Below are positions 59,753-63,293 of a stretch of 64,000 bases of DNA, one piece after another. The DNA is taken from assembly GCA_963798485.1 (NCBI GenBank), contig CAWCTR010000016.1:1-64000 (forward strand), read 5' to 3'. The notes below the pieces were generated by a model that was not told where the DNA came from, did not search any database, and saw only the letters and a list, made by a program, of their open reading frames with translations. Each line of letters starts with the position of its first letter. The first letter of the stretch is position 1. This stretch comes from an uncultured delta proteobacterium (lineage in GTDB: Bacteria; Desulfobacterota; Desulfomonilia; UBA1062). A program made the translations under genes and the position numbers.

Positions 59753-61294
59753 TCAGGCTGTTTTTTGTCTATCAGGAAAGCCTCTCATACCCATAGCCCA
59801 CAGTGAACCAAAATACATCCCGCAACCCAACACTATCGATGAAAAAAGCAGCAAGCAGGATTTCAGGGTCATGCCTGCATTCCAGATATTCATGCGGGCA
59901 AAAGGGACCAACACAAGGCCCATTATGACAGCGGCCGCAAACATCTTGCCAAACTGTCGCACATGCTCCTCCGGGATATGGATTCCAGAACCTGTAAGAT
60001 ATTTGTGCTGAATAAGGACCTGGGCAAAGACCGAAATACTGCTGGCAAGGGCGATCCCGGCATGCTTCATAAAGGGCATGAGGATGAGACAGAATATCAA
60101 GTTCACCACCAAGCTCATCCAAGAGATATTCACTACTGCCTTGGCCTTTTGCATGGCGTAGAGCGCCTGAGTCTGTATCCGCGTATATCCTACGGCCCAG
60201 AGACTTAGGGCATACATCTGCAGGGCATAAGCCGATGCAAGGGCATCGCTTAGGGTAAAGGCGCCACGCAGGAAGAGGACAGCGAAGATAGGCCTTGCCA
60301 GGACGAGAGAGCCGACAGTGGCCGGGATTGTAAAGAGAAGGACCGCCAGAAGCCCCCTTCCCATGAGAAAAGAGAACCGCTCCGTATCCAGCCGCGCAGA
60401 GGCCGAGCTCATGGCGGGCAGCATCACATTGCCCACGGCAAAGGCGAAGATCCCTAAAGGCAGCTCCAGAATCCTGTTTGAATAGTAAAGATAAGAAACG
60501 CTTCCCTGGGGAAGCAGCGAGGCAAGCAAGGTCCCGATGAGCACATTGACCTGATATATGGAGGCCCCGATAGCCGCCACACCTAGGAGGCGGATCACTT
60601 GCCTCACCCTCGGTGAATTGAAGTGGGATGCAAATGCCAGGGGAACACGTCTTTTCAGCAATGGGGGTATCTGGATCAGGATCTGCGCGATACCCCCGGT
60701 GATCACCCCCCACGCCAACGCATCTGCAGGCGAAGAGAATAGGGGATATGCCACATAACAGAGCAAAGGCACCCCGATCATAAAGAGGTTCATGAGGATC
60801 GGTGCGGCGGCAGGTGCTGCAAAATGTCCCAACGAGTTGAGGATACCCATGAAGAGTACGGCCACACCTATAAGGAGTATGTAGGGAAACATGATCCGGT
60901 TAAGGTGAACCGTGGTGTCGAAGACTCCGCTATGGAGAAACCCCGGAGCCATGACTGCAACAAGGGCGGGTGAGGCGATCTCGCCGATGATCACCACTAC
61001 CACCAGGCTGTAGAACATCAGCGTCATGATCTGTTGGGCCATGAGGTAGGCCCGCTCGAGTCCCTCACGCTCCTTGACCTCGCTGAACACAGGGACGAAC
61101 GCCACGCTGACAGCGCCTTCGGCCATGAATCGCCTGAGAAGGTTGGGAATCCTGTTCGCAACGACAAAGGCATCGGCGAGGAGGCCTGCCCCGAGGAGCC
61201 AGGCCATTATCATATCACGGATAAAACCGAGAATTCGACTGATTGCGGTGAGCCCACCGACAGTGGCGACGTTCTTCTTGAAGCCGTCCCTCAT
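59753..61294 (-). CDS. murJ: Lipid II flippase
   Basis: SRILGFIRD, RIPNLLRRFMAEGA and RILELPLG motifs; many TM segments. Confidence 0.95.
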   Translation of the reverse strand: MRDGFKKNVATVGGLTAISRILGFIRDMIMAWLLGAGLLADAFVVANRIPNLLRRFMAEGAVSVAFVPVFSEVKEREGLERAYLMAQQIMTLMFYSLVVVVIIGEIASPALVAVMAPGFLHSGVFDTTVHLNRIMFPYILLIGVAVLFMGILNSLGHFAAPAAAPILMNLFMIGVPLLCYVAYPLFSSPADALAWGVITGGIAQILIQIPPLLKRRVPLAFASHFNSPRVRQVIRLLGVAAIGASIYQVNVLIGTLLASLLPQGSVSYLYYSNRILELPLGIFAFAVGNVMLPAMSSASARLDTERFSFLMGRGLLAVLLFTIPATVGSLVLARPIFAVLFLRGAFTLSDALASAYALQMYALSLWAVGYTRIQTQALYAMQKAKAVVNISWMSLVVNLIFCLILMPFMKHAGIALASSISVFAQVLIQHKYLTGSGIHIPEEHVRQFGKMFAAAVIMGLVLVPFARMNIWNAGMTLKSCLLLFSSIVLGCGMYFGSLWAMGMRGFPDRQKTA

Positions 61295-61329
61295 GTCAGT
61301 GGGCTTTACCCAGTGCGGGGGTGGCCGTA

Positions 61330-62037
61330 CTAATCCCTCACGACCTTTGCCTTGATACGGGCATCCTTGGCCTTGATAGTCTCCTGATCAGTCTCGACAT
61401 GTAATGTCCCGAAAAAGAAATCAGTAGGCAGGCCTGCCTGAAAACGCACCTCCACGGATATGGACTTTTCAGGCTCGAGTTTCACCTTGCCCTGATGGGA
61501 AACCGAGAGCACGGTTGAAGGGTTTGCGGATATGGAGGTTATGGTTAGGGGCTCTTTCCCCTTGTTTGTAATGGTAAACATCTTTTTATTCATAGAGCCT
61601 GTTTTCACCGTCCCGAAATTGAAATCCATAGGTGTTACGGAGAGGATCTCCACAATTTTGACCTTCATGGTCAACCTGAGAACCGGCATGGAGGGATCAT
61701 TGGTTTCAACCTCGATGTTTTTCGTATAGTCCCCTTTAATATAATGGGTTGCTATGTTCACCACAAGCTTCTGGGTCTTGCCCGGCTCAATCTCCTGCCC
61801 ACCCGGGGCAGTTACCGTGGCGCCTCAACAAGGTTTGGGCTTGAAGGTAAGCTTCTGATCTCCTATGTTCTTAAACACGAATTCGTGTGAAAAATCCTTA
61901 CCCTCAGATAGTGCCCCTGCATCATAGACCGCCTGGTCAACCTGTATCTTGGCAGATGCATGGCATGAAGCCGCTGCAATAAGGGAAAGGGCCAAACAAA
62001 CCATGATCAGGCCTGTAATCCTCAAGGAATTAATCAT
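61330..62037 (-). CDS. Exported DUF1573/Ig-like protein, probable selenoprotein (in-frame UGA at 61825-61827), 235 aa
   Basis: ORFs 61825..62067 and 61330..61764 are in frame and separated only by TGA. Readthrough gives FVFKNIGDQKLTFKPKPC-U-GATVTAPGGQEIEPGKT...ETNDP, one continuous domain. A SECIS-like hairpin follows. Confidence 0.8.
61795..61811 (-). promoter_or_regulatory. Bacterial SECIS-like hairpin
   Basis: mRNA reads UGA-13 nt-CUGCCC-CGGGU-GGGCAG; the G-containing apical loop begins 19 nt after the UGA. Confidence 0.7.
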
Positions 62038-62153
62038 ATAACCACCTCCGGTAATCATGGCTAACATAAATTTTTCCTGTTTGCCACTGGGTTTTCAAGA
62101 CCATTTTGGGTTAGTGTGTTGACTTTTCATACTTCAGAGAATACATCTAAGCC

Positions 62154-63293
62154 ATGCGTGGAAAACTGGAACATCCAAGAGGGCTCATAGAGCTCCTTTC
62201 CGTAGAAGTGGAGCGAATCGATAATGAGTATCGAGAGCTGTGGCTGAGTTTTGAATATACCTGCCCGGGCGGCGAGTATAAATCGGCCATGGTGCTGCCT
62301 ATCTCCAACTCCAAAGAGATGGTGAACTTCTTTTTCAAAGAGCTTATCAGCGAGGCCAAACACCTCTCTGAGATTGAAAAAAACGAGGCCTTGAACGTCG
62401 GACTCTTTGTGGCCAACAAGACCGACACCATGCTGCCCATTAAAAACCTGTGCCAGCGGGTGATAGATGTTCTCAATATCGCCGAAGACCTTCATGAGAA
62501 CCGCGAGTTCATTGACCTGTGCACCTCTGGGTTCCACTTCAAGGATGGAGCTAACAGTTTGAGCGCCAAGGGTTTTGAGGAGCGCTTCAAGATATTCATG
62601 GGCCGCGCCACGGACAAGATGTCACAAGGCTACTATACCATAGCGGCCGATGACCTGGAAAAGGCGAACATCCTGTGCGCTACCAGCCCATTCATAACCA
62701 AACTCATAGGCATCTGCCACCGCGAACTGGGCCATCTCGATCTTGCTTTGGAGATGTTTACAAGGGCAATGGAACTCGGCGATAAGGAAAAGGATACCTA
62801 TCTTTATCTCTCTGAGATCCACTTCTTCCTCAACGATATGGAGCATGCATATGATATCCTTGAAAAGATGCTCGAAGAACACCCCGGCGATATAAGGGCC
62901 CTTGTGGAACTCGCCAATATTAAATATCAGATGGACGAGGAATACACCACCTATCTTGACAGGGCTTATGCCATCGAACCGGAGCAGACCCAGAAGACAA
63001 TCCTCCAGACCTTTGTGTTCAAGAAGGTGGGCGGAGGCAAGAAGGCCCGCATGTCCATCGTTGAGGCCTCAAGGCTTTTAGACATACCCGAGCACAGTAT
63101 CAGACAGCTTGCCGGCAGCAACCGCATACCCGTCAGGGCATTCCCGGACAATGACGAGCTGGTGCTTGATGAGAATGAGCTCAAATCGTGGGCCTACGTT
63201 TACAGGAGATACAAGCTGCTGCAGGATGAGATCGAGAGAGTTAGTACTCACCCGCCAGGGGAGAAAAATCAAGGCGTGGCTCTACTTTCCTGA
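62154..63293 (+). CDS. TPR protein with a C-terminal excisionase/MerR-like HTH
   Basis: Central TPR helices; C-terminal MSIVEASRLLDIPEHSIRQLAGSNRIP. Confidence 0.7.
   Translation: MRGKLEHPRGLIELLSVEVERIDNEYRELWLSFEYTCPGGEYKSAMVLPISNSKEMVNFFFKELISEAKHLSEIEKNEALNVGLFVANKTDTMLPIKNLCQRVIDVLNIAEDLHENREFIDLCTSGFHFKDGANSLSAKGFEERFKIFMGRATDKMSQGYYTIAADDLEKANILCATSPFITKLIGICHRELGHLDLALEMFTRAMELGDKEKDTYLYLSEIHFFLNDMEHAYDILEKMLEEHPGDIRALVELANIKYQMDEEYTTYLDRAYAIEPEQTQKTILQTFVFKKVGGGKKARMSIVEASRLLDIPEHSIRQLAGSNRIPVRAFPDNDELVLDENELKSWAYVYRRYKLLQDEIERVSTHPPGEKNQGVALLS

Follow-up and report, generated by a model that had tools for sequence, protein, structure and literature searches.

A predicted exported selenoprotein with a Cys-Sec pair in a DUF1573 domain from an uncultured member of the Desulfomonilia

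DUF1573 has been a selenoprotein family since 2007, when OS_HP2 was found in the metagenome of Olavius symbionts (Zhang and Gladyshev 2007, PMC1976440), and DUF1573/OS_HP2 is listed among the selenoprotein families with the motif UGC (PMC9312934, PMC13188914). In the phylum to which the genome studied here belongs, the curated model NF041425 ("OS_HP2 family (seleno)protein") matched in 161 of 401 genomes and exceeded its cut-off in 31, most of the top matches containing one TGA. No functional study of DUF1573 domains was found, the term being absent from the titles and abstracts of the four papers that mention DUF1573, and a literature search returned no paper holding both "Desulfomonilia" and "selenocysteine". 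The gene described in this work, from an uncultured delta proteobacterium, represents a separate clade of the family with a variant of the motif, C-U-G. Supplementary family alignments of the papers cited may already include C-U-G forms.

A reading frame interrupted by one TGA

The window is the whole stretch of DNA that was analysed, 64,000 nucleotides of contig CAWCTR010000016.1; the source genome, a draft assembly, comprises 32 contigs and has an estimated contamination of 6.96%. On the minus strand of the window, positions 61330-62037 constitute a single frame of 235 codons plus a TAG stop, broken solely by a TGA at 61825-61827, which is codon 71. The initial annotation had noticed two ORFs that share one frame and are separated by a single TGA, and both the ORF list and the read-through translation bore this out. 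The upstream ORF (61825-62067, minus strand, 80 aa) ends with this TGA, the downstream ORF (61330-61764, minus strand, 144 aa) starts with GTG in the identical frame, and translation of 61330-62067 with TGA as U yields one open frame with one recoded codon. From the TGA to the GTG there are 20 open codons, which spell GATVTAPGGQEIEPGKTQKL, exactly the residues that had been quoted. Translation is likely to start at the ATG at 62037, which lines up with the first Met of the orthologues in the alignments; a Shine-Dalgarno-like GGAGGTGG box (62042-62049, minus strand), read from the sequence, is located 7 nt 5' of this ATG. The predicted selenocysteine codon is immediately preceded by the TGT codon of Cys70 (61828-61830, minus strand).

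TGA is the commonest ordinary stop codon in the window, where it ends 22 of the 40 ORFs of at least 250 aa. A reassignment of TGA throughout the genome was rejected on these grounds, and the recoding is therefore local and not the consequence of an altered genetic code. It had also been foreseen that standard gene callers would split such a gene. When 5.8 billion predicted proteins were searched, there were 33 matches, and 28 of these were fragments of 136-171 aa, which corresponded to the part after the TGA and covered 56-66% of the query, and there was no full-length close match among the proteins searched.

The DUF1573 family (PF07610) matched residues 41-136 of the read-through protein with 79.6 bits (E = 1.9e-22, gathering cut-off 26.1 bits), so that one Pfam domain crosses the TGA; taken together with the match to the HYDIN/VesB-like Ig family (PF22544, E = 2.6e-25), the matched region is residues 39-136. 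This first domain (61660-61947, minus strand) is the one that would bear the Cys70-Sec71 pair. The second domain (61372-61644, minus strand) is of the choice-of-anchor D or ASH type, also Ig-like (NF012200, 52.7 bits with a cut-off of 45; also PF15780 and PF22073). With Cys placed at the Sec site, the score against NF041425 was 74.3 bits, below the cut-off of 100, and in a six-frame search of the genome this model gave 47 bits at the gene. The AF2 model, computed from a 27-row alignment, had a mean pLDDT of 92.5 and consisted of a helix (residues 2-24) and two beta sandwiches; in it the read-through sequence formed a single compact domain, and pLDDT exceeded 90 around the Sec site. When the PDB was searched with Foldseek, the nearest folds were ASH/HYDIN-type Ig domains of ciliary proteins, CEP192 and 2qsv, a P. 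gingivalis protein of unknown function. These matches confirm the modelled fold and give no function. The sequence search of the PDB produced two matches only, with E about 0.7, and neither this search nor Foldseek revealed a close solved structure of known function.

The protein is probably exported, as suggested by a predicted Sec-type signal peptide comprising residues 1-27 (61957-62037, minus strand), with cleavage after C-H-A. In the full-length aligned homologues the N-terminus is hydrophobic and ends with small-x-small, two rows of the alignment being N-terminally cut. A lipoprotein signal was considered and rejected: the sequence that precedes Cys25 is incompatible with a lipobox, and this Cys is not conserved outside the genus.

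Conservation of the TGA and of the downstream hairpin

Forty-one related genomes were searched, and 40 of them gave matches. The in-frame TGA was present in all of the best 26 matches, whose identity ranged from 100% down to 31%, and absent from the matches that came from the second family of the class. Homologues were excised from 30 loci and 31 sequences were aligned, of which 24 contained TGA, one had Asn (L046) and six had S/T/D-C-G-C. The TGA occupied a single column in the 24 sequences; it was followed by Gly in all of them and preceded by Cys in 23 (the exception being Thr in L047), which gives the clade motif P-C-U-G-[A/V]. In two further alignments the canonical DUF1573 C-G-C, present as S-C-G-C in six homologues of the same class, had its first Cys in the Sec column. 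In the alignment of 29 NF041425-type sequences, 24 had G/D-U-G-C and five C-x-C; the Sec column of the present gene was that of the Sec of G-U-G-C in the 24 OS_HP2 members and was occupied by Cys in the other five. His51 is likewise a conserved residue of the Sec forms.

These alignments agree with the initial annotation in that the UGA lies at the position of the family's Cys motif. The check proposed there, an alignment of homologues, showed TGA, or in more distant forms Cys, at the same column. The motif itself, which had been written as C..C, has to be corrected: it is C-x-C, and Sec stands in place of its first Cys. Compared with C-x-C, the present motif lacks the second Cys and has gained one directly before Sec. 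One locus of the C-U-G clade (L046, G023:C56) has no TGA: its sequence there is C-E-S-C-N-G, in which Asn fills the Sec column and the residues immediately preceding it form a new C-x-x-C. With regard to copy number, one genome (G016) contains two C-U-G genes in tandem on one contig (locus L041, G016:C96) and another (G009) contains three separate TGA-bearing copies, which indicates that the clade has expanded in some genomes.

The CUGCCC/GGGCAG hairpin that had been reported to start 13 nt past the UGA was found at 61795-61811 (minus strand). It has a 6-bp stem and the 5-nt loop CGGGU, and the distance from the UGA to the apical loop is 19 nt. In the bSECIS model, as described in PMC13188914, the loop has 3-9 nt with a G within its first two positions, the stem has 4-16 bp, the loop is 16-37 nt from the UGA and the minimum free energy is at most -7.5 kcal/mol. 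All the corresponding values of this hairpin, including the G at loop position 2 and the -9.3 kcal/mol obtained when it was folded in isolation, fall within these bounds. A scan of 61300-62100 against Rfam, with E values up to 10, gave three chance-level matches (E 1.8-6.1), none of them at the hairpin. Judged by the sequence of the window alone, the hairpin does not stand out from chance: the single-sequence fold of 43 nt had -12.4 kcal/mol (z = 0.13), and 100 of 200 shuffled sequences folded equally well.

Taking the homologues into account, the hairpin is above chance, because it is both conserved and covarying in 24 of them. In an alignment of 69 nt around the TGA (24 sequences, 22 of them distinct) the 6-bp hairpin was kept in every sequence and 94.7% of the cells were paired, a proportion that dropped to 34-64% when the 3' partner was slid by 1-3 columns. 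In three of the six stem pairs both partners had changed (U-A to C-G or G-C, and C-G to U-A), amounting to 12 cells. The covariation score was 0.302, with a mean of 0.156 for shuffled alignments, and was reached by 0 of 500 shuffles, a count that is not a probability because the aligned sequences are related. RNAalifold independently predicted the same helix from this alignment. Since the hairpin overlaps the conserved peptide A/V-P-G-G, its conservation could partly be derived from the protein. In some of the compensating changes one side of the stem changes synonymously (Gly GGG to GGA) and the other side exchanges Ala for Val; such changes argue for a constraint on the RNA and not on the protein alone. 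The six non-Sec homologues examined (L046, L048-L052) had no hairpin at this place. Conservation of the hairpin, which had been proposed as a check on the selenoprotein interpretation, is thus seen in the 24 Sec-bearing homologues, together with compensatory changes.

Genomic context and alternative readings of the TGA

All components of the Sec machinery named in the initial annotation are present in the genome. Matches over the curated cut-offs were obtained for selA (519.5 bits) and selD (383.3 bits), selB was found twice (323.9 and 322.6 bits, cut-off 242), and tRNA-Sec scored 75.9 bits (gathering score 47) and was called SeC with anticodon tca by ARAGORN. In the set of 41 related genomes selB was over the cut-off in 37, including 33 of the 33 high-quality genomes; the four without selB are 76-86% complete. 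The two selB matches of the source genome (C28:1576-3417 and C27:14132-15973; L001 and L002) are both open frames of 648 aa with near-equal scores; they could stem from a genuine duplication or, the estimated contamination of the genome being 6.96%, from two strains that were binned together. The selD gene (G000, contig C14:110693-111616; L010) contains one in-frame TGA, located in a G-A-G-U-A-C-K motif, which suggests that SelD is itself a selenoprotein here. The spacer in the SECIS of selD is 13 nt long, like that of the DUF1573 gene, and leads into a 7-bp stem with a GUU loop.

Four sequencing runs were compared with the locus, all as contigs. A DNA contig from a bioreactor metagenome of another study covered 61656-61879 with zero differences, TGA included, and a second DNA contig covered 61300-61693; either of the two samples may be the source of the assembly. 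The same TGA, for which a confirmation in raw reads had been proposed, was in this way seen in the assembled contig of a second study. The contigs from RNA libraries, which can also hold DNA, belonged to a relative with 90-95% identity and covered 61315-61646, downstream of the TGA. Since their source is a relative and the TGA lies outside the part that they cover, these contigs are evidence neither for transcription of the present gene nor for read-through.

The gene is followed, 35 nt downstream and on the same strand, by murJ, which encodes the lipid II flippase (59753-61294, minus strand; PF03023, E = 2.5e-104). Because murJ adjoins 21 of the 24 C-U-G loci, these loci can be regarded as orthologous. 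The terminator scan found no terminator-like site in the 35-nt gap, and the selenoprotein gene is probably co-transcribed with murJ, judging from the sequence. In the promoter and terminator scan the counts were no higher than in shuffles, and there was one weak -35/-10 match at 62098-62070. A divergent TPR-repeat gene (62154-63293, plus strand; TPR families) lies on the other side and is found beside 18 of the 24 homologous loci. Among relatives the C-U-G selenoprotein has an identity of 31-84%, whereas that of the neighbouring genes is 54-96%; the TPR gene, with 54-96%, is well above the selenoprotein. By eye, the C-terminal part of the TPR gene product resembles a small DNA-binding domain. 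Neither murJ nor the TPR gene was found in the 36 other loci (L048-L083) within the flanks examined. Genes that recur next to the OS_HP2 loci and the Cys-form loci were also sought; within the 1.5-kb flanks none was informative, many of the clusters being spurious antisense frames.

A search for related loci with the protein gave two close loci only. When one genome per species was scanned with a degenerate DNA pattern combining C-U-G and the hairpin, at least 119 stretches were obtained; among the 80 loci listed, 23 encode a C-U-G homologue and 57 are chance matches in unrelated organisms. All of these 23 are in metagenome-assembled genomes, whose titles name Desulfomonilia, Deltaproteobacteria, Thermodesulfobacteriota, Syntrophaceae, Desulfobacter and Bacteriovoracaceae. 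As far as found, and among the matches listed, the C-U-G clade appears to be restricted to Desulfomonilia-like genomes, a range that is to be taken as a lower bound. Several of the public bins with a C-U-G gene, which is typical of Desulfomonilia-like genomes, are titled "uncultured Bacteriovoracaceae bacterium" (L085, L104, L108, L113, L128, L136 and L164), and these labels are probably wrong.

From the results described above (one reading frame, a TGA conserved among homologues, covariation in the hairpin, Sec machinery in the genome, domain matches, synteny and the modelled fold) we estimate a probability of about 0.92 that 61330-62037 is one gene for an exported selenoprotein of 235 residues, in which the UGA is decoded as Sec by means of the hairpin. 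SelB carrying Sec-tRNA(Sec) would bind the hairpin at 61795-61811 and thereby read the UGA at 61825-61827 as selenocysteine. Removal of the putative signal peptide would leave a mature protein of about 208 residues in the periplasm, made up of two Ig-like beta sandwiches, the first of which (DUF1573) would carry Cys70-Sec71 in place of C-x-C. In our view Cys70-Sec71 is the active site.

If the TGA were a true stop codon, the locus would be a pseudogene, or it would encode an exported peptide of 70 residues and a protein of 144 residues restarted at the GTG at 61764. This is how gene callers read it, all 28 close database homologues being C-terminal fragments of 136-171 aa, and TGA is after all the commonest stop in the window. 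A stop codon is, however, very hard to reconcile with the observation that in 24 homologues, down to 31% identity, this column always contains TGA, or with the 20 codons that follow it, which lack any start codon and are nevertheless conserved at the protein level. In addition, a single Pfam domain spans the break, the read-through is a single compact domain in the AF2 model, where pLDDT around the site exceeds 90, and the hairpin covaries. The same very low likelihood is assigned to read-through by near-cognate or suppressor decoding, in which Trp, Cys, Gly or Arg would be inserted instead of Sec. It is true that the sequence alone cannot tell the inserted residue, but the genome possesses the complete Sec machinery, the geometry of the hairpin is that of a bacterial SECIS and resembles the selD SECIS of the same genome, Cys occupies this column in homologues, as is typical of Sec sites, and L046 has lost the TGA and the hairpin together. 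An assembly or sequencing error might be suspected, given the 32 contigs of the draft and its estimated contamination of 6.96%. That the same codon is found in 23 other independently assembled genomes and in at least 23 more loci from the pattern scan of public genomes, and that the contig from another study matches with zero differences, makes such an error hardly credible. We therefore retain the interpretation of the locus as a selenoprotein gene.

Provided that the protein is real, we lean, with some reservation, towards the view that the Cys-Sec pair is a redox centre that cycles through a selenenylsulfide, because most Sec sites pair with a redox Cys (PMC9312934). A soft metal or metalloid site seems doubtful by comparison, but it is a serious alternative since several of the OS-type selenoproteins tabulated alongside OS_HP2 are metal-related (PMC9312934); some other role of the pair accounts for the remainder. 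In a wider and rather unlikely scenario, the C-U-G clade would be a functionally distinct periplasmic selenoprotein whose Cys-Sec pair, presented on an Ig-like scaffold, serves through its selenenylsulfide as a redox or chalcogen-transfer centre in the manner of the thioredoxin reductase tail, and the conserved co-transcription with murJ would reflect a function in the biogenesis or protection of the envelope under anoxic, sulfidic conditions.

Comparison with OS_HP2 and with Cys-Sec proteins

The present protein and OS_HP2 have in common the DUF1573 Ig-like domain, the Sec column (the first Cys of C-G-C) and the phylum. They differ in the motif, which is G-U-G-C-[T/S] in OS_HP2 and P-C-U-G-[A/V] here, so that Ala or Val stands at +2, where OS_HP2 has Cys, and a Cys is gained at -1. 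The motif U-G-C, which characterizes NF041425 according to PMC9312934 and PMC13188914, is thus represented by C-U-G-[A/V] in this gene. A further difference is that the hairpin described here is encoded by the clade-specific A/V-P-G-G segment. The OS_HP2 UGC loci (L054-L083) mostly have two hairpins after the UGA, a nearer one approximately 10-13 nt past it and variable in sequence, and a second one approximately 31 nt past it, encoded by the conserved I-P-P-G-G/K-E-G segment. Finally, murJ lies beside the present gene, in contrast to 0 of 30 OS_HP2 loci within the 1.5-kb flanks.

A tree was computed from 61 first domains; in it a branch with an SH-aLRT value of 98 separated the 25 C-U-G rows and L046 from the UGC and the same-class C-G-C sequences. 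This single split was used because the tree has few columns and includes the neighbours of the motif itself. L046 is nested in the C-U-G clade and looks like a case of secondary joint loss of Sec and SECIS, as far as its sequence and position can tell. With the canonical Cys-form DUF1573 proteins (PF07610; same-class loci L048-L053) the present protein shares the two-domain exported architecture and 23-26% full-length identity. The Cys forms differ from it by having S-C-G-C, no TGA, no hairpin and no adjoining murJ within the flanks examined.

These comparisons show a whole clade of genes that are cut in two in public annotation and that the curated NF041425 model does not reach. Because the genes are split and score below the cut-off of this model, selenoproteome counts for this lineage are too low. 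They also show, within one family, how the resolving Cys shifted from position +2 to position -1 relative to Sec with the Sec column fixed, and one clade member, L046, which then appears to have lost Sec and SECIS and gained a C-x-x-C. The gene is a defined, easily expressed and probably exported target for studies on the function of DUF1573.

Vicinal Cys and Sec residues are also known from proteins of other types. In animal thioredoxin reductase the C-terminal Gly-Cys-Sec-Gly forms a selenenylsulfide that shuttles electrons. The likeness to the present motif, a Cys-Sec pair followed by Gly, may serve as a lead; the two proteins are not homologous, and the pair is placed here inside an Ig-like domain of a predicted exported bacterial protein and not at the C-terminus of a flavoenzyme. 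A scan of the present protein against NCBIfam gave no match to SaoC (NF040734) or SaoB (NF040727), bacterial selenoproteins with a CU motif (PMC13188914). These families are unrelated to the gene described in this work, and what they have in common with it is the adjacent Cys-Sec.
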